This document shows positions 1 to 48,119 of a DNA stretch of 64,000 nt, piece by piece. The stretch spans positions 95,331 to 159,330 of the forward strand of contig CAWAOA010000005.1 of NCBI GenBank assembly GCA_963783655.1, read 5' to 3'. A program made the position numbers and the translations under genes. The notes under the pieces were generated by a model. It did not search any database. It was not told where the DNA came from and saw nothing but the letters and a program-made list of their open reading frames with translations. The DNA is from an uncultured Chloroflexia bacterium. Lineage in GTDB: Bacteria; Chloroflexota; Anaerolineae; CG2-30-64-16. Each line of letters begins with the position of its first letter. The stretch's first letter is position 1.

Positions 1-657
<657 letters not shown>

Positions 658-719
658 CGATTTCCTCCCGTTGTGATGCTTGATATGTGATATAGGAATC
701 GAATCCTCGTTATAGCCGT

Positions 720-1219
720 CTAGCAAACGCCGTTGTGCTTGCTGGGCGCCCTGCTGCCGTCGGCACGCACCATGACCACCTGCCCGGTGCGCACCATCTC
801 CATGATCCCGAAGTTCCGCAGCAGCTCGATCAGCGACTCGACCCGGTCCTCCGGCCCGGTGATCTGCACCACCAGCGAGTCCAGCGCCACGTCGACCACC
901 TGGCCCCGGAAGATGTCGACCAGCTGCAGGATCTCCGCCGCGGTCTCGGCGTTGGTCGTGCACCTTCATCAGCGCCAGCTCGCGGACGACCGTGGGCTTC
1001 CGGTCACATCCTGCACCGCGGTCACGTTGATCAGCTTGAAGAGCTGCGTCTCGACCTGGACAGCTCGCGCTCGTCGCCGTCCACCACGAAGGTCATGCGG
1101 CTGATGCCCGGCGTCTCGCTGTGGCCGACGGCCAGGCTCTCGATGTTGAAGTTGCGCCGGCGGAAGAGGCTCGAGACCCGGTTCAGCACGCCGGGCTTGT
1201 CTTCCATCCAGGCGATCAT
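720..1219 (-). CDS. ilvH: acetolactate synthase small (regulatory) subunit, ACT domain; frameshifted
   Basis: [50 protein letters not shown] matches the IlvN/IlvH ACT domain. The C-terminus ...[15 protein letters not shown]...[16 protein letters not shown] is recovered in other frames. Confidence 0.75.
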
Positions 1220-1236
1220 CGTGTCGCTTCATGGCT

Positions 1237-2971
1237 CTATTCCTCCTCAGCTTCCATCGCCGGCAGCGGCCGGCGGATCATCTCGGCGTTGCTCTTGCCC
1301 GGCGCCACCATCGGGTAGACATTGATCAACGGCTCCACCTTGAAGTTGAGCAGGAACGGCCCGCGGTGCGCCCGCGCCGGCCGGATCGCTTCCGCCACGT
1401 CCGCCTTGCCGCTCCACGTGATGGCCGGGATGCCGTAGGCGTCGGCGATCTTGGCGAAGTCCGGGTTGAACAGCGGCGTGCCGGAGTAGCGCTGCTCGTA
1501 GAAGATGTCCTGCCACTGGCGCACCATGCCCAGGTAGCCGTTGTTGATGATGCCGATCTTGACCGGCAGCTTCTCCGCCACGACGGTGGACAGCTCCGGC
1601 ATCGTCATCTGGAAGCCGCCGTCGCCGGCCACCACCCACACCTCTTCGTCGGGTCGCCCGATCTGCGCGCCGATGGCCGCCGGCAGGCCGAAGCCCATCG
1701 TGCCCAGGCCGCCCGAGGTGATCAGGCTGCGCGCGCTGCGTGTGCGGGAAGTACTGCGCCTCCCACATCTGGTGCTGGCCCACGTCGGTGCACGACCGTG
1801 CAGTTGCCCTCGCCGGTCAGCGTGCCAGAGCTGGCGCATGATGTAGGGCGGGACCAGCTCGTCGCTCTCCTGCGCCAGCAGGTCGCGCCGGTCGGTGTCG
1901 TGCCGCCACTCGTGCGATCTGCGCGCAGCCAGTCGGGGTGCTGCTTGGGCTGCGACCAGCGGCAGCAGGGCCCGCAGCGTCAGCAGCGCATCGCCGATGA
2001 CCGGCGGTATCGATCTTGCATCGTCTTGCCCACCTCGGCCGGGTCGAGGTCGATGTGGATGATGCTGCGCCTTGGGGGCGAAGGTGCTGAAGGCCCCGGT
2101 CAGCCGGTCGTCCAGCCGGGCGCCGACGGCCAGCAGCACATCGCACTCCTGGATCGCGTAGTTGGTGTAGGCCTCGCCGTGCATCCCGCCCATGCCCAGC
2201 GCCAGCGGGTGGGTGTCCGGGAAGGCGCTCGATCCCCAGCAGGCGTGGTGGCGACCGGGATGTTGGCCATCTCGGCCAGCTTGCGCAGCTCGGCCGTCGG
2301 CGCGGGCGATCAGAACGCCGTGCCCGGCGAGGATCAGCGGGCGCTCGGCGCCGTTGAGCAGGTCGGGCCGCCGGCGCGATCGCCGCCGGAGCCGCGGCGC
2401 ACAGCGCCGGGCTGGTAGCCGGGCAGATGCACGCTATCGGGGTATTCGAACTCAGTTTCGGCATGCTGCGCGTCTTTGCAGATGTCGACGAGGACGGGGC
2501 CGGGGCGGCCGGTGCGGGCGATGTAGAAGGCTTCCTTGAGGGCTTGCGGGCAGATCTCTCGACGTCGGTCACCAGGTAGTTGTGCTTGGTCACCGGCAGG
2601 CTGACCCCCTGCACGTCGGCTTCCTGGAAGCCGTCCCTCCCCAGCAGGGTGGTGGTCACCTGGCCGGTGATCGCCACCACGGGGAGGAGTCCATATAGGC
2701 CGTGGCCAGGCCGGTGACCAGGTTGGTGGCGCCCGGACCCGAGGTGGCCATGCACACCCCCACCTTGCCGGTGGCCCGGGCGTAGCCATCGGCCATGTGC
2801 GCCGCGCCCTGCTCGTGGGTCACCAGCACGTGGCGGATCGGGTAGCGGTACTTGGCCTGAGCGTCGTAGATGGGCAGGATGGTCGCCGCCGGGCAGGCCG
2901 AAGACGACGTCCACCCCTTCGGCCATCAGGCTCTCCCAGACGATTTGTGCCCCACTCTTTCGCTGACTCAT
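1237..2971 (-). CDS. ilvB: acetolactate synthase large (catalytic) subunit; multiple frameshifts
   Basis: N-terminus [29 protein letters not shown], middle [24 protein letters not shown], and the C-terminal TPP-binding region [45 protein letters not shown], spread over 3 ORF-track frames. Confidence 0.85.
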
Positions 2972-3046
2972 GTCTCCCCCTCATGATTCCGGCGTTGGCG
3001 AGCGGATGATCCGGCGCCCGGTGCGTGATAATTGCGATTCCGGCAA

Positions 3047-3077
3047 ACAAAAAGGGCCTCCCTTGCGGGAGGCCCTT
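3047..3077 (-). terminator. Rho-independent terminator / putative attenuator hairpin immediately upstream of ilvB: GGGCCTCCC-gcaa-GGGAGGCCC followed by TTTTT on the minus strand
   Basis: Perfect 9-bp GC stem plus a T5 run read on the minus strand. It lies between the leader ORF and the ilvB start at 2971. Confidence 0.5.
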
Positions 3078-3109
3078 AGCCTTTTGGTTTGCCTTTAGCG
3101 GTCGTTGCC

Positions 3110-3208
3110 TCAGCCTGGACCTGTGTCCCCCCTGAACTCGCCATGCTCCTTGCCAAGTAGGCCAAGGAGCGTGCTAATAAGGACTAGGACCAGGCCGGAA
3201 GAATGCAC
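3110..3208 (-). CDS. putative ilv leader peptide, GTG start, 32 aa: (M)HSSGLVLVLISTLLGLLGKEHGEFRGDTGPG, rich in Leu/Val/Ile
   Basis: Short ORF in a locally AT-richer region (3080-3300), with AGAGG about 10 nt upstream of the GTG. It is followed about 30 nt downstream by the terminator hairpin and then ilvB. Confidence 0.35.
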   Translation of the reverse strand: MHSSGLVLVLISTLLGLLGKEHGEFRGDTGPG

Positions 3209-3411
3209 TATCGAGACCTCTGATTCCTGCTGTTGAACGTTGCAGCGAAGGTAACACAGGTTACATAGCCTGTCAAACTGACAAAAGTACCAAAGGGCAT
3301 GCAAAAAAGCCGCGGAAGCGGATGGTATAATGGCCGCCGGCCACCAAGGAAAGAGGTGCGATCAGTGGAACGGGATTCAACCCATATCCTGGGAGCGGCG
3401 GCACCCTGCGC

Positions 3412-4159
3412 ATGGTTGCCTACAACCTGGGCCAGGGCGGCCGGCGGGACGCCGGAGCCTGGCTGCGGCTCCTGGGGATACCGGTACCGGACCTGTTGTT
3501 CGTGCAGGAGTCACGCGATCCGGCAGGGCGCGTGGCTCGCGACCCTGCCGGGCGGCGCTCCAGAACAGTGCCACTGGGAAGACACGGGCGCGCGCCGCTG
3601 GGGCAGCGGGTTGTGGGTGCGCGATGGCCGGTTGACGCCGCTGACAGTTCCGCAGGCTTACCGCGGGCGGGTCGTCGCGGCGGTCGTGGAAGGGCTCACG
3701 TGGCCGGTGCTCGGCGCCTCACCGGTGGTGGCGATGAGCATCCATGCGCCTACGGCGAAAGGCAGCTCGTACATCAAAGAGGTTGGGCGCATCCTGGATC
3801 TGGTTCCCGCGATCGCCGCCGGGCTTCCCGTCGTGCTGGGCGGCGACTTCAACGTGGCCGTCGCTCTGCGGGCGTCCGACCACGCCCTCTACAACTCGCC
3901 CGGCGAGCGGACGGTGCTGGCGAGGATGCGTGACGAGCTGGGGCTGCTGCCTTGCTGGCAGTCGGCTCACCCGGATGAGGAACCTGCTCGCACGCTGCGG
4001 TGGATGCGACGCCGCGACTCGCTGCCCTACCACTGTGACGGCCTGTTCGTGCCTGCGGCGTGGATACCGTCGCTGATTGGCTGCGAGGTGTTGGAAGACG
4101 ACGACTGGTGCGCCCTCAGCGACCACAACCCGGTGGTGGCGACGTTTGCCTCCGCATGA
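3412..4159 (+). CDS. endonuclease/exonuclease/phosphatase (EEP) family protein; one frameshift near 3530
   Basis: VAYNLGQGG...LFVQES motif at the N-terminus, and ...VLGGDFNVA...SDHNPVVATF at the C-terminus, which is the EEP catalytic signature. Confidence 0.6.
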
Positions 4160-4317
4160 GCCAGACACGAGAGTCCGTTGTGTCGGGCCGTGAAGAGATC
4201 GTGGGACGGCCCATGCCGGTCCCTCCATTCCGGTTCAGCCAGTGAAGGCGTGTGCTGGTGTCCCCGTCCGGACTCGAATCCGGACCGCAACAGAATTTCG
4301 GTGGGTGCATCCGACGT

Positions 4318-4447
4318 TGGGGGCGATATGTAGGATAACATGCCGATGTTGTCCCGTGTGTGGGGTAGAGCGGGCTATTGTTGTCAACAAGCAGCATGCT
4401 CTACCCCATACCCGGGACAACATCGGCATGTTATCCTACAAATCGCC
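4318..4447. repeat. 125-bp near-perfect palindrome: about 50-bp arms (2-3 mismatches) around a palindromic core TTGTTGtCAACAA
   Basis: GGGGGCGATATGTAGGATAACATGCCGATGTTGTCCCG... mirrored by ...CGGGACAACATCGGCATGTTATCCTACAAATCGCCCCC. Intergenic between the EEP gene and the hydrolase gene. Confidence 0.7.
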
Positions 4448-4630
4448 CCCGACGTGCGGTGCGCCAACTTTCTGTCCCTGGCTTGACCCGCCAATACCCC
4501 GGCTGTATGCTAACGACTCGCAGGGGAGAGGGCGGTGGCGAGAGCATACGGCCCAGTATCTGCGCCTTGCGATCACCATCTGCGTCCCGGACCGGTGCAT
4601 TCAACCCTCGAACGCCGGAGGAGTTTACCC

Positions 4631-31850: not shown

Positions 31851-32957
31851 TCACTTTTGTGTCGCCTCTGGGGTTGGAGCGGAGTCGCGCGGAAAAACCG
31901 GGCACCATTCGAAAGTCGCGCCGCCGGCGTGGCAGCCATCGGCATCGCAACTGACGCCGGAAACGATAGCCGCTCGCACGTTGGGAATCGTGAGCGCCTG
32001 CCCAACAGAGGTCAGCCCCCCCTGCACCTCACCCCGGGGGTGATGGCAGCGGCGGCAGTCTACTGCCGTCTGGATATTGTGCGAGGGCCACGACCTGAGG
32101 GTATGGGCGAAGCGTTGGGGGATGTACTCGCCGAAGTGGCGGGAATCGGGCAGCAGATCCTGCCAGATAGGCAGCCCGCCCGCATCGTGGCATCCAGTGC
32201 AGTTTGCACTGGCATGTGACGCATGGATCTGCGCCGCGCCGCCCCGGGTCACGTCGTGGCAGTCGATGCACTTCACCGGCGTGCCGTGCGAGCCGTGGCA
32301 GCTTGCGCAATCCCAACCCTTGTGGGCCGGCGAGTGCTCCTGCTCGTTCACCACCTCGAAACCGTGCCTGCCCTCGTGGCACTTCTCGCAGAGCTCGGTC
32401 GAATTCTTCACCGGCTCGTACACGCCCGCCTTTTGGTTCCAGAACGAGATCGAAGTGCTGTAACTTTCGCCGATGGGCTGGTGGCAGACATCGCAACTGA
32501 TGTTCTTCCATTGGGTTTGCGGCACCGGCACGCCGCCCAGCAAATCGGGCCTGGGCAGGCCTGGCTCGCGTTTGCAGCTCGTGCAGTCATGCGATGCCTC
32601 GGCTGCGACCACCTGCGTCGGATCCCAGTTCTTGGGTGACTTACAGGTCGCGCAGGTGGTGTTGGCGCCCATCCCGTTGTCGTACGTGTCGGCGTGCTGG
32701 GTCTTGGCCCACGCGGCCTGCGAAGCCCGGAGTTGATCGGCAGTGGCCGGGGTGCCGGGGGCCGGAGTGGCAGCCTGCCGCGGAGCCTGGGTAACGGTCG
32801 CCCCCGCCCACATCTCGGCGCCGGCCGAGACGGCGACGGTGAGGGTCCATGCGGCCACCATCACGACTACGAGGAGATAGAGAATCCCGAGCCGCGGGTT
32901 GGGCTTGCGCCCGCCGGCGCCAGGGCCAGCGCGTCCGAGCCGGTTGAATAAGTCCAT
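31851..32957 (-). CDS. multiheme c-type cytochrome, paralog of the downstream gene (CDVCH, CEKCH, CASCH, CIDCH, CTGCH, CRRCH, CX4CH, plus CATCK and CTSCK)
   Basis: TM/signal ILYLLVVVMVAAWTLTVAVSAGA, then the motifs listed. Collinear with 30709-31821 (the ...SPKNWDP / ...SPGNWES blocks align). Confidence 0.8.
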   Translation of the reverse strand: MDLFNRLGRAGPGAGGRKPNPRLGILYLLVVVMVAAWTLTVAVSAGAEMWAGATVTQAPRQAATPAPGTPATADQLRASQAAWAKTQHADTYDNGMGANTTCATCKSPKNWDPTQVVAAEASHDCTSCKREPGLPRPDLLGGVPVPQTQWKNISCDVCHQPIGESYSTSISFWNQKAGVYEPVKNSTELCEKCHEGRHGFEVVNEQEHSPAHKGWDCASCHGSHGTPVKCIDCHDVTRGGAAQIHASHASANCTGCHDAGGLPIWQDLLPDSRHFGEYIPQRFAHTLRSWPSHNIQTAVDCRRCHHPRGEVQGGLTSVGQALTIPNVRAAIVSGVSCDADGCHAGGATFEWCPVFPRDSAPTPEATQK

Positions 32958-33315
32958 CGTGTCGGGAACACTTTCCATTGGGGGGCGGGCCGCAAGCGCG
33001 CGCAACCGCCTCAGGCAAGCACAGTCTACCACACCTCGCCTGCGCCCTGCTTCACTGAGGTGGGTGATGTTTGGGCCGCCGGAAGGGTTATTGCAGCTAC
33101 TCCTTTTGGTGGGTCTGGGGCACGCAGCATAGCCCGATTGGGCGATGCGCGGATGATCGCCGTATGCCGCGTCACAGCTTGCACCGGCCGCCGGTGATGC
33201 CAGGGCCGGCCGGCTATCATCCTCCCCAGGGTTACCGGTGAGTGACTGGAAGATTGCTGACGACACTTCCAGGATGCGAACAAGATAATTCTTCCTCGGT
33301 GGAGGATTTGGAGTG

Positions 33316-33761
33316 AGTATGAACGACCTGATCGCGCCGCGTCTACAACCATCCAAGCCCCGGTGGCGAAAGTGTGGGACGCGCTGACAAATCCGGCAGC
33401 CATCAAGCAATACATGTTCGGCACCAACGTGGTTTCCGAATGGAAGGAAGGGAGCGGTATCACCTGGCAGGGCGAATGGCAAGGCAAAACCTATGAGGAC
33501 AAGGGGGTGATTCTGAAGCTGGCGCCGGAGCGAATGATCCGGTATACCCACTTCAGCCCGCTTTCGGGGCAACCCGACACGCCGGAGAACTATCACACCG
33601 TTACGGTCGAGCTTGCAGACGAGGGGACGCAGACTCGGGTTTCGCTGTCACAGGATAACAACACGACTGAGGAAGAGCGCGACCACTCTGCCGGGAATTG
33701 GGCATCGATGCTGGAGGGAATGAAGACACTGCTGGAAGGGCGGCGGCCAGACGGCCACTGA
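33316..33761 (+). CDS. SRPBCC-superfamily protein (AHSA1/Aha1-like); frameshift near 33340
   Basis: ...TTIQAPVAKVWDALTNPAAIKQYMFG...ITWQGEWQGKTYEDKGVILKL.... Confidence 0.6.
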
Positions 33762-45610: not shown

Positions 45611-48119
45611 TCAGACCAGCCCGTGCTCCATTGCGAAACGTACGGCCGCGGCGCGGGACGTCACCCCAATCTTGGCGTAGATCGAGGTGAGGTGGGCGTT
45701 GATGGTCCTCGGCGTCACGACCAGCCGTTCGGCGGCCTGGCGGTTCGTCAGCCCGTCGGCGACCAGCCGCAGTACTTCCATCTCGCGCGGGGTCAGCGCG
45801 TCGGGGCCAACAGACCTGTGTGATGACCCGGCAGCGTGACTGACCCCGGCGCTCGCGCCGCCGGCGGCGACCTGCACGCCTGGCAAACCGGCCTTCTCCG
45901 GAGAGCGGGCAGAGTATATGTCAAGCACGGACCCGGCGTATTCCTCGGCGAACGCTGCGATTTCGTCCACACTCATCGCCCGGGCTGCGGAGAACTCGCG
46001 ATCGAAATTCTCCTGTCCCATCTCCGCCTTCAGCTTTTCGCACATGGGCACAACGAGCGTATCCCACTGGATCGCGTTCACACCTATCACCTTGTCTTGC
46101 CAGGCAGCCATGGCGCCCAGAACCCGCGCGGCCACCATGGGGCCGTGCAACAACCGTCCAACTTCCAGATAGGCTACCGGCTGATAGGTTCCTGACTGAG
46201 AGGGCTGCTCCTGTACTGTTCCGTCTGCATCGAACTCGAAGCCCTGCATGAGCACGAGGTGTCCGATCAGGTTGCCATAGTCTCCGAGGGCCGTATGGAG
46301 GCGAACAGCCTCCAGCATCAGGCCGGCGGCTCGCGCCGGGTTTCCGAGCCTCTGTTCCACGCGCGCCAGGGTGCCCAGCGCAGTGGCCACATCGGGCAAG
46401 GAGCCCAGCGCGCGCCAGATGCCGAGGCTCTCTTCCAGCGCCGGTACCAGACCGTCGAGTCGCCCTGATTCGACCGACGCGATTGCGAAGATATGGAGCG
46501 CCGTCGCTATAGCCGCCGGATCGCCGGCCTCGCGAGCCTGCGCCAGGCTTTCTTCGGCGTACCGCCGGGCACCCACCAGGTCCATCGCCTGGAAACGCAG
46601 CCAGGCCAGGTCATTCAATCCGGTCGCGATGCCGACAGCGTCGCCTTGCTCTCGCCAGATGCTCAACGCCTCGCTATGGTAGCGCGTCGACTGCTCGAAC
46701 TCGTTGAGCGTGTGCGCCATGATACCCAGAGCTCTGAGCAGACGGGCTCGCAGCGGCCGCGGGAGGGACGCGCTGCCCGGCAGCATCACGATCCGTGTGA
46801 GCCAGCAGTCGGCCTCTCGATGGTAGGCACGGGTAGACCAGAAGCCGTACAGTGCGAGGGCCAGCCGGGCGCCCCCCTCGGCCCATCCGCTTTCGACAGC
46901 CCAATCGAGCGCCCCACGGTAATTGGCCTGTTCGCGCTCCAGACGCAGGTACCATTGCTGTTGCCCGGTCCCGCCCGCCTGAGAGCTACCCAGCTCCAAG
47001 AAACCGATATACCAATCATAGTGGCAGCGCGCGGTGCGCTCGAGCTCGCCGGATTGGTCCAACTTCTCCCGGGCGTACAGCCGAATCGTCTCGAGCAAAC
47101 GGTAGCGCCCGCCGCCGTGGTCCACCTGGACGAGTGACTTGTCTACGAGCCGGAGGACGGCATCGAGCACTTCGGCGGTGGGGATCTCAACCGCACAGAC
47201 AGATTCGGCCGCATCAAGCGTCCAATCCCCCGGGAAAACCGCGAGCCGCCGCAGGACCGCACTTCTCACGTTCGTCGAGAAGCGTGTGGCTCCAGTCGAG
47301 CAAGGCTCCGAGCGTCTTGTGGCGAGGCAGAACCGAGCGGCCGCCGGCGGTGAGCAGGCGGAAGCGCTGATCCAGCCGGGCGGCGAGCTCGGAGACGGAG
47401 ACGACACGCAGCGCTCCGGCGGCCAGCTCGAGAGCCAGCGGGATGCCGTCGAGCCGGGCGCAGACCTGGGCCACGGCCGCGGCGTTGCCGGCGTCCAGCG
47501 AGAAGGCAGGATCGGAGAGCCGGGCGCGATCGAGGAACAACTGGACGGCCTCGAACTGCATCATCTCCTCGGTCGAGGGCAGCGCCTCCGGGTCGGGGAA
47601 GGAGAGAAGCGGCACCCTGAAGGTGCATTCGCCCCCGATCCCCAACGGCTCCCGGCTGGTAGCCAGCACGCACAGGCCCGGGCTCGCGGCAAGCAGCGTG
47701 GCTGCGAGACGGGCACATTCGTCCAGCAGATGTTCGCAGTTGTCGAGCACCAGCAGGGTCTTGCGCTCAGCCAGGAAAGCGGGCAGCGAGTCATCGAGCG
47801 ACACGGCGGGGGTGGATTCGATTCCGAGCGCACGGGCGACCGTCTCCGCCACCAGCTCCGGCGTTGTGAGCGAGGCGAGATCAACCAGGAATGCGCCCTG
47901 CGGGTAGTCCTCAGCCAGAGCGGCAGCCGTTTCGAGCGCCAGGCGCGTCTTGCCGGAGCCGCCCGCGCCGGTCAGGGTGACCAGCCGCCGCTCGTGCAGC
48001 AGCCGCCTCAGCTCGGCCAGCTCCAGGCTGCGGCCGACGAAGCTGGTCAGCCGGTGGGGCAGGTTGTGGGGGGATCGCCCACCCACAGGTTGGGAAGCTT
48101 GCGACATACGACTCATCAA
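45611..48119 (-). CDS. large LuxR-family regulator with N-terminal NB-ARC/AAA (STAND) ATPase, TPR repeats and a C-terminal LuxR HTH; frameshift at about 47220-47400
   Basis: Walker A LTGAGGSGKTRLALE; LLVLDNCEHLL; TPR region; HTH LTPREMEVLRLVADGLTNRQAAERLVVTPRTINAHLTSIYAKIGV. Confidence 0.75.

Follow-up and report, generated by a model that had tools for sequence, protein, structure and literature searches.

The 64,000-nucleotide (nt) stretch of DNA analyzed here, referred to as the window, belongs to an uncultured Chloroflexia bacterium (contig CAWAOA010000005.1, positions 95,331 to 159,330) and contains a short open reading frame (ORF) rich in Leu, Val, and Ile codons, followed by a terminator hairpin, upstream of the acetolactate synthase gene ilvB. 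An earlier note on this DNA had read this layout as ribosome-mediated attenuation, and the present analysis agrees, mainly by comparison with 26 related leaders. The evidence supports a role for the window leader as a ribosome-mediated transcription attenuator of an ilvBHC(-leu) operon that responds to Leu, Val, and Ile jointly. For the leader family as a whole, operation by ribosome-mediated attenuation is quite likely. The function of the window copy itself is somewhat less certain than that of the family, given how weak its antiterminator is and how the assembly was affected by errors or frameshifts. On balance, we favor the view that these leaders form an uncatalogued family found across several classes, with a core of YCCUUAUU, a CUCCUU/AAGGAG hairpin, UUGGGAGG, and a CCUCCC terminator, in that order, and that this family heads branched-chain amino acid (BCAA) operons in Anaerolineae, Caldilineae, Thermomicrobiales, and related uncultured lineages, with a T-box instead in Dehalococcoidia.

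Related leaders and the leader family

The loci used for comparison were gathered by IlvB protein similarity alone and consist of 80 GTDB genome loci (IlvB identity of at most 65% among the matches listed), 80 metagenome loci, and two contigs found via close IlvB homologues. The 500 nt 5′ of each ilvB were scanned for short Leu/Val/Ile-rich ORFs and for terminators. All five of the closest relatives (L081–L085, IlvB N-terminal identity of at least 79%) possess a Leu/Val/Ile-rich ORF of 28–32 codons and a terminator upstream. The same layout is present in L087, L091, L099, L105, and L128, as well as in named genomes from the Anaerolineales/Anaerolineae (L001, L012), the Caldilineaceae (L046), and the Thermomicrobiales (L031); the leaders of myxobacterial-type loci are similar but distinct. 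The leader of L082 is plainly homologous to that of the window, as it encodes the peptide MRHSSLVVVLISGLLGLIVKELTPAGRT and has the same terminator and the same putative TTGACA-17-TAnnnT promoter.

A covariance model (R1) was built from an alignment of 14 leaders and searched against the window and all 162 loci at E<1e-5. The search returned 26 matches, 12 of which lie outside the training set. The window holds one copy, which scores 107 bits and is among the best. Two of the non-training copies (L155 and the second copy of L087) sit immediately 5′ of ilvB. Nine others are located 1–1.9 kb upstream of ilvB, where they adjoin ilvD or ilvE. Eight of these lie directly 5′ of ilvD (L007 792–939, L039 909–1084, L103 550–713, L161 611–773, L110 487–671, L107 624–780, L089 555–727, and L090 565–745) and one directly 5′ of ilvE (L026 1620–1767), ilvB being the second gene in these ilvD- or ilvE-headed operons. 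The leader element thus stands at the head of the BCAA operon, whichever gene comes first (ilvB, ilvD, or ilvE). This placement speaks strongly for a cis-regulatory role and not for an unrelated small gene.

Whether the ORF is conserved in relatives, a question raised in the earlier note, is answered by the 26 copies. In every one of them a single frame is open from the start codon through an apical hairpin (described below) and holds 7–13 Leu/Val/Ile codons among the 18 that precede that hairpin; the remaining two frames are closed or hold 0–5 such codons. The stop codon lies 17–44 nt 5′ of the terminator in 26/26. Moreover, Leu, Val, and Ile are all represented in every copy, usually around a V-L-I core (GUC CUU AUU). 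The window copy and that of L084 have a GGGGGG variant in common, along with a homologous TGA. The two sequences differ by a 1-nt indel located between the variant and this stop, and a second indel, further upstream, preserves the frame of both ORFs, as expected from selection on translation.

Individual loci offer some further observations. In L087, tandem leader copies (1096–1246 and 1372–1512) precede a single ilvB, and both have a Leu/Val/Ile-rich ORF and a terminator of their own. Four loci have a gap of 196–270 nt between the terminator and ilvB that contains another terminator-like hairpin (L001 2590–2786, L012 2516–2777, L082 4488–4676, and L083 324–556). The region of this extra hairpin has no Rfam match in these four loci and could be a second regulatory element. 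Weak R1 matches (23–34 bits) in Ancylomarina euxinus (Bacteroidota; L073 375–513, 519–674, and 6606–6757) suggest analogous leader-peptide attenuators, two of them adjacent.

The leader in the window

All coordinates of the leader refer to the minus strand. The ORF extends from a GTG at 3208 to a TGA at 3112–3110 (3208–3110 overall) and comprises 32 sense codons that encode the peptide VHSSGLVLVLISTLLGLLGKEHGEFRGDTGPG. Ten of the 13 codons from 6 to 18 (3155–3193) specify Leu (seven), Val (two), or Ile (one), whereas these amino acids take up 19% of the codons in nine coding ORFs from the window (binomial P=1.2e-5), which bears out the earlier description of a 32-codon, Leu/Val/Ile-rich ORF. 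Six of these ten codons are rare (CTT three times, CTA twice, and ATT). In the genes of the window, CTT and CTA account for 9% and 3% of Leu codons, respectively, and ATT for 11% of Ile codons. Over the whole ORF, with the GTG start counted, 6 of 11 Leu/Val/Ile codons are rare, the background being 23% (P=0.02).

The ORF had also been credited with its own Shine–Dalgarno (SD) sequence. An SD-like AGAGG (3217–3221) is indeed located 8 nt 5′ of the GTG; this candidate is plausible and weak, and no consistent SD is found among the relatives. Further upstream, a putative leader promoter consists of a −35 element, TTGACA (3271–3276), and a −10 element, TACCTT (3248–3253), with a 17-nt spacer between them; three of the six bases of the latter match TATAAT. 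The equivalent site of L082 reads TTGACA, 17 nt, TAGGAT, which supports the putative promoter. A longer in-frame start (TTG 3304, 64 codons) was considered and rejected, as it lies 5′ of the proposed promoter and L082 does not share it.

The terminator, AAGGGCCTCCC-GCAA-GGGAGGCCCTT (3077–3052), is a perfect 11-bp hairpin followed by T5-G-T3 (3045–3053). It was picked up by the terminator scan as an 11-pair stem containing eight G-C pairs, and the inverted repeat delimits its 5′ arm AAGGGCCTCCC (3067–3077, segment 3) and its 3′ arm GGGAGGCCCTT (3052–3062, segment 4). The strong hairpin and T5 run of the earlier note are thus present, with the spacing from the ORF stop amended from 30 to 32 nt. 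The distance from the terminator to ilvB is 80 nt. Together with the flanking A-tract and U-tract, the terminator has a folding energy of −33.4 kcal/mol (z = −4.25). The U-tract also pairs with an A-rich tract at 3080–3093; this tract is complementary to 3042–3055 (14 nt, 93%), which extends the hairpin and gives it a terminator-like look on both strands. The earlier note was also right to call the leader AT-richer: its GC content is 0.53–0.59 over 3001–3400, compared with 0.65–0.74 in the flanks.

Between the terminator and the ribosome-binding site of ilvB lie the short sequences GCCGGAATC (3036–3044), GCCGGATC (3008–3015), and again GCCGGAATC (2985–2993). The GCCGGAATC repeats were considered as a protein-binding site and rejected, as there are two matches and the exact 9-mer is no commoner than chance in the window. 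Leader codons 2–5 (3205–3194) are 83% complementary to 2993–2982.

RNA pairing in the leader

The predicted secondary structure of the leader contains a long hairpin. In the minimum-energy folds of the window copy and its relatives, the Leu/Val/Ile codons (segment 1; 3176–3203 in the window, spanning codons 2–11 including GTC-CTT-ATT) pair with a G-rich segment 2 (3107–3139), and the inverted repeat GCTCCTTGG...CAAGGAGC (3145–3170, codons 14–21) forms the apical hairpin. Segment 2 contains a nearly invariant UUGGG, usually within UGGGAGG; its core in the window is GGGGGG (3132–3127), which corresponds to the UGGGAGG of the family. The sequence of segment 2 is the same as the top of the terminator 3′ arm, and consequently it is complementary to CCUCCC in the terminator 5′ arm.

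The apical hairpin and the terminator show strong covariation in the 14-leader alignment. Together they are 91% paired, compared with 77.5% in shuffled alignments and 49–65% in slid registers. Two-sided changes occur in 15 of their 19 pairs (7/8 in the apical hairpin and 8/11 in the terminator), a count reached by 0/500 shuffles, and RNAalifold agrees with a covarying apical hairpin and terminator. Tested in fixed columns of the model alignment, the stem between segments 1 and 2 (1:2) pairs only in a subset, with some compensatory changes, because its register differs among subgroups; segment 1 does not align reliably. The fixed-column test was replaced by an alignment-free count of the partners of segment 2 in the minimum-energy fold. 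By this measure, segment 2 pairs with the Leu/Val/Ile codons in 12/14 training leaders and 19/26 copies overall, including that of the window.

The candidate antiterminator pairs segment 2 with segment 3 (2:3). In the 14-leader alignment its register is 86.7% paired, compared with 78.7% in shuffles and 39–65% in slid registers, and its central pair varies between A-U, G-U, U-G, and C-G along with the type of terminator (CCUCCC or CCGCCC). The antiterminators of new members include GGGCGG:CCGCCC (L039) and GGGCAG:CUGCCC (L089). The response of the pairing to a stalled ribosome was simulated with a 28-nt mask placed at each codon in turn, on transcripts cut off before segment 4 so that segment 3 was the last to be folded. 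In seven leaders (L082, L001, L012, L046, L099, L091, and L128), a mask on the Leu/Val/Ile codons, and specifically there, yields the antiterminator, which is gone without a ribosome or with the ribosome near the stop, consistent with the classical logic of attenuation; the antiterminator is clear in L001, L012, L046, L099, and L082. Equilibrium folding of the full masked leader was discarded as a measure, as the 11-bp terminator always wins (P ~0.95) and the result is uninformative. The alternative pairing that the earlier note had sought is therefore found in part: segment 2 pairs with the codons in most copies and complements the terminator arm, and the antiterminator of the window copy, weighed below, is the part that falls short.

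Proposed mechanism

The arrangement of segments suggests the following mechanism. Transcription would start approximately 35–40 nt 5′ of the GTG at 3208, from the putative promoter. In the emerging transcript, segment 1 (3203–3176) would pair with segment 2 (3139–3107) to form the long hairpin, capped by the apical hairpin (3170–3145). With segment 2 occupied, segments 3 and 4 (3077–3052) would form the terminator, and the polymerase would stop at the U-tract (3045–3050) before reaching ilvB. When Leu, Val, and Ile are ample, the ribosome is expected to reach the TGA (3112–3110), where it would cover segment 2 or let the 1:2 hairpin re-form, in either case leading to termination. A shortage of charged tRNA-Leu, -Val, or -Ile would instead stall the ribosome in codons 6–18, where it masks segment 1. 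The freed segment 2 could then capture the CCUCCC of the emerging segment 3, so that no terminator forms and the polymerase proceeds into ilvBHC. The use of rare codons in the regulatory run would make this response sharper, as it does in the enterobacterial leu leader.

T-box and other known RNA families

The principal known alternative at such a position is the T-box, and a T-box motif in place of the attenuator was the outcome that the earlier note named as contrary to its reading. No T-box (RF00230) is detected at 2800–3600 even at E=10, and none is found window-wide at the gathering score. Indeed, the whole window lacks any match to Rfam 15 at or above a family's threshold, and seven related leaders match neither the T-box nor any other Rfam family. 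Among the Rfam amino acid leaders (Leu_leader RF00512, Phe_leader RF01859, and those for His, Thr, and Trp), none reaches its gathering threshold. A permissive scan of 2800–3600 returned terminator-driven noise only, with Phe_leader at 23.4 bits (threshold 55) aligned over the terminator only.

The same search has the power to detect T-boxes: it places them above the Rfam threshold 5′ of ilvB in eight Dehalococcoidia-type loci, and RF00230 is recovered at 93–112 bits directly 5′ of ilvB in seven Dehalococcoidia loci (L037 2447–2708, L038 2492–2744, L052 2132–2401, L053 2510–2727, L062 2506–2753, L066 2409–2711, and L068 2374–2585). Partial matches were obtained in L131 (73 bits) and L070 (truncated).

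Neighboring genes and sequence quality

The genes downstream of the leader lie on the minus strand and follow the order ilvB–ilvH–ilvC given in the earlier note, which is confirmed by Pfam matches on gene fragments. The gene ilvB (acetolactate synthase large subunit, 1237–2971) starts with an ATG at 2971 and contains approximately 12 frameshifts in the assembly. It is followed by ilvH (acetolactate synthase small subunit, 720–1219), which matches ACT_AHAS_ss and ALS_ss_C and is frameshifted, and by the 5′ part of ilvC (ketol-acid reductoisomerase, 1–650), which matches KARI_N, is frameshifted as well, and leaves the window. On the other side, a divergent plus-strand gene of the endonuclease/exonuclease/phosphatase family (3412–4159) is separated from ilvB by a 440-nt gap that holds the leader. 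Because this upstream gene is on the opposite strand, the leader hairpin is not the terminator of a preceding gene.

Frameshifts interrupt ilvC, ilvH, ilvB, and the divergent gene (1–4200), whereas ORFs of 500–670 residues are open elsewhere in the window. The same fragmentation is seen in two related contigs, L081 and L082, from ENA assemblies with neighboring accession numbers (ERZ25039495 and ERZ25039600). The frameshifts are probably indel errors of long-read assembly rather than signs of pseudogenes.

Three other features of the window have no relation to the leader: an ORF for a DDE-type transposase (PF01609, 35856–37259), a multihaem cytochrome-like ORF (31851–33596), and a LuxR/TPR regulator (45611–47407). 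The window also has one copy of a 76-nt inverted repeat (4301–4376 and 4393–4468, 86% complementary, 16-nt loop), situated between the divergent gene and a gene for an alpha/beta-hydrolase; it is possibly a MITE- or REP-like palindrome.

Weighing the alternatives

A number of results weigh against the attenuator reading, and most of them concern the antiterminator and the quality of the sequence. In the window copy, the antiterminator GGGGGG:CCUCCC amounts to 6 bp with one G-U (duplex energy −10.9 kcal/mol). With a ribosome on codons 6–11, forcing this pairing costs 3.3–5.6 kcal/mol relative to a local hairpin of the freed segment 2, and the codon-by-codon mask scan of the window copy yields no clean switch. 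The window leader without its terminator folds no better than shuffles (z = −0.98). Across 26 sequences, covariation in the fixed 2:3 register is modest (79.1% vs 75.0%, matched by 10/500 shuffles). Single-sequence 2:3 duplexes (RNAduplex) are no better than dinucleotide shuffles except in L046 and L031, as the G/C-rich background yields chance 6-bp matches. The antiterminator is the weakest part of the model, that of the window especially. Regarding expression, the consensus scan of the window does not report the leader promoter, because its −10 element is weak, and the SD of the ORF is weak too. The neighboring genes carry approximately one indel per 140 nt; the 170-nt leader itself may hold an assembly error, and genuine frameshifts would mean a dead operon. 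Finally, mutation of the candidate regulatory codons in the Streptomyces coelicolor ilvB leader left regulation unaffected (reported in PMC1262725), and layout alone is consequently no proof of mechanism.

Three other explanations can be set against this background. The family could be genuine and the window copy a decaying, non-functional relic, with GGGGGG in place of GGGAGG as a weakened antiterminator and a frameshift-riddled operon behind it. The cost of forcing the antiterminator and the lack of a clean switch in the mask scan fit a relic, as do the many frameshifts in ilvB and those in ilvH, ilvC, and the neighboring gene. The ORF, its stop at 32 nt, the apical hairpin, and the terminator are nevertheless all intact and family-typical in a copy that scores 107 bits. 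Moreover, GGGGGG is also present in L084, an independent assembly, and is probably a natural allele, and the presence of the same broken genes in the ERZ25039495 and ERZ25039600 contigs points to sequencing indels; a relic is accordingly judged improbable. Alternatively, the conserved leader could be a structured RNA that is read by a protein, small ligand, or tRNA and not by a translating ribosome, the ORF arising only because the pairing segments are CU-rich and AG-rich. This would account for the stricter conservation of the motifs CCUUAUU, UUGGG, and CUCCUU/AAGGAG than of the peptide, whose late Gly-Arg is merely the GGG-AGG of segment 2, and it has a precedent in the S. coelicolor leader whose codons did not matter (PMC1262725). 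Such an RNA sits poorly with the retention in 26/26 copies of a start codon, an open frame, and a fixed stop distance, with the richness in Leu/Val/Ile in that frame only, with indels among copies that preserve the frame, and with the constant presence of all three types of BCAA codon. No Rfam riboswitch or T-box matches it, and we give this explanation very little weight.

The remaining explanation is that the ORF and terminator make up a separate small gene, which encodes a hydrophobic membrane peptide and adjoins ilvB by chance. The peptide does have a 16-residue hydrophobic core resembling a short transmembrane segment, and a strong terminator does follow the ORF. On the other hand, the peptide is poorly conserved save for its composition, its codons pair with downstream RNA, and the element, always in one orientation, heads BCAA operons that begin with any of three genes. 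In addition, no separate ilvB promoter is apparent to the consensus scan in the 80 nt past the terminator. A chance neighbor of this kind is scarcely credible, and ribosome-mediated attenuation is the reading carried into the comparisons below.

Comparison with known systems

Our literature search found no description of a leader peptide for a Chloroflexi ilvB. A 2010 Russian comparative study (Lopatovskaya, Seliverstov, and Lyubetsky) is reported to have surveyed classical attenuation across phyla, Chloroflexi perhaps among them. A survey published in the same year placed leader peptides, as known until then, only in Proteobacteria and Actinobacteria, and added Firmicutes (PMC2965389).

Close parallels in design are the leaders of the ilvGMEDA (ilvL) and ilvBN (ivbL) operons in Escherichia coli and Salmonella. 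These likewise have a Leu/Val/Ile-rich leader ORF of 32 codons and a terminator before the first biosynthetic gene, and their four segments with mutually exclusive 1:2, 2:3, and 3:4 pairings and their multivalent end-product control are the pattern proposed for the window leader (PMC3766115, PMC1183508). No sequence similarity to ilvL or ivbL was detected. In contrast to them, the window leader uses CCUCC/GGGAGG repeats and has an extra apical hairpin inside the ORF, its host is Chloroflexota-like (the best named hits are Anaerolineae/Chloroflexota at 57–69% identity), and its operon is ilvBHC(-leu). Ile/Val leaders have no Rfam model (PMC3766115).

The earlier note had regarded the mechanism as mostly proteobacterial and had taken the ilvBHC gene order as pointing to a T-box or another mechanism. 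This background calls for correction. Leader peptides with terminators have been described in Actinobacteria (PMC1262725, PMC11857589) and for the ilv-leu operons of Firmicutes (PMC5794164, PMC5864092), and because the actinobacterial examples stand 5′ of ilvBNC/ilvBHC, this gene order is no argument against attenuation. In Corynebacterium glutamicum (ilvBNC) and in Mycobacterium and Streptomyces (ilvBNC/ilvBHC), the downstream gene order is the same as in the window, and a short ORF with runs of Ile/Val/Leu codons is likewise found with a poly-U terminator 5′ of ilvB (PMC1262725, PMC11857589, PMC10272879). The two groups differ in that the actinobacterial codon runs overlap the terminator hairpin (PMC1262725), whereas the window ORF stops 32 nt before it (17–44 nt in the family) and its codons are predicted to pair with a separate segment 2. 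A three-hairpin model has been put forward for the C. glutamicum ilvBNC leader, and the mode of regulation of actinobacterial ilvB leaders is debated (PMC1262725). In Firmicutes, the attenuator peptide of the Staphylococcus aureus ilv-leu operon and Rli60 of Listeria are examples of BCAA attenuation by leader peptide where T-boxes are otherwise common; they differ from the window leader in sequence, in an operon that begins with ilvD, and in additional control by CodY (PMC5794164, PMC5864092).

Within the phylum, the T-box of Dehalococcoidia ilvB shares with the proposed window attenuator the gene, the terminator/antiterminator output, and the tRNA-charging signal. The T-box senses uncharged tRNA directly and without translation, unlike a leader peptide. 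That a T-box and a leader peptide can replace each other at one gene is already known from evolutionary studies (PMC2965389).

Significance

These results provide evidence for leader-peptide control of BCAA synthesis in Chloroflexota-type bacteria, for which Rfam 15 has no model. The leaders amount to a new family, and a definable one, within a well-known type of regulation; the mechanism itself is textbook. For the annotation of this contig, the ORF is best described as a leader peptide and not as a protein, and the indels in the adjacent ilv genes are probably assembly errors. More generally, a searchable family would allow metagenome-assembled genomes to be annotated better, both at short "hypothetical" ORFs and between genes. 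The occurrence of a leader peptide and a T-box at one gene within one phylum is useful for studying how sensor modules are swapped before a conserved terminator. If the proposed family is genuine, it would represent a within-phylum exchange of tRNA-charging sensors and a definable RNA family for tracing the gain and loss of attenuators.

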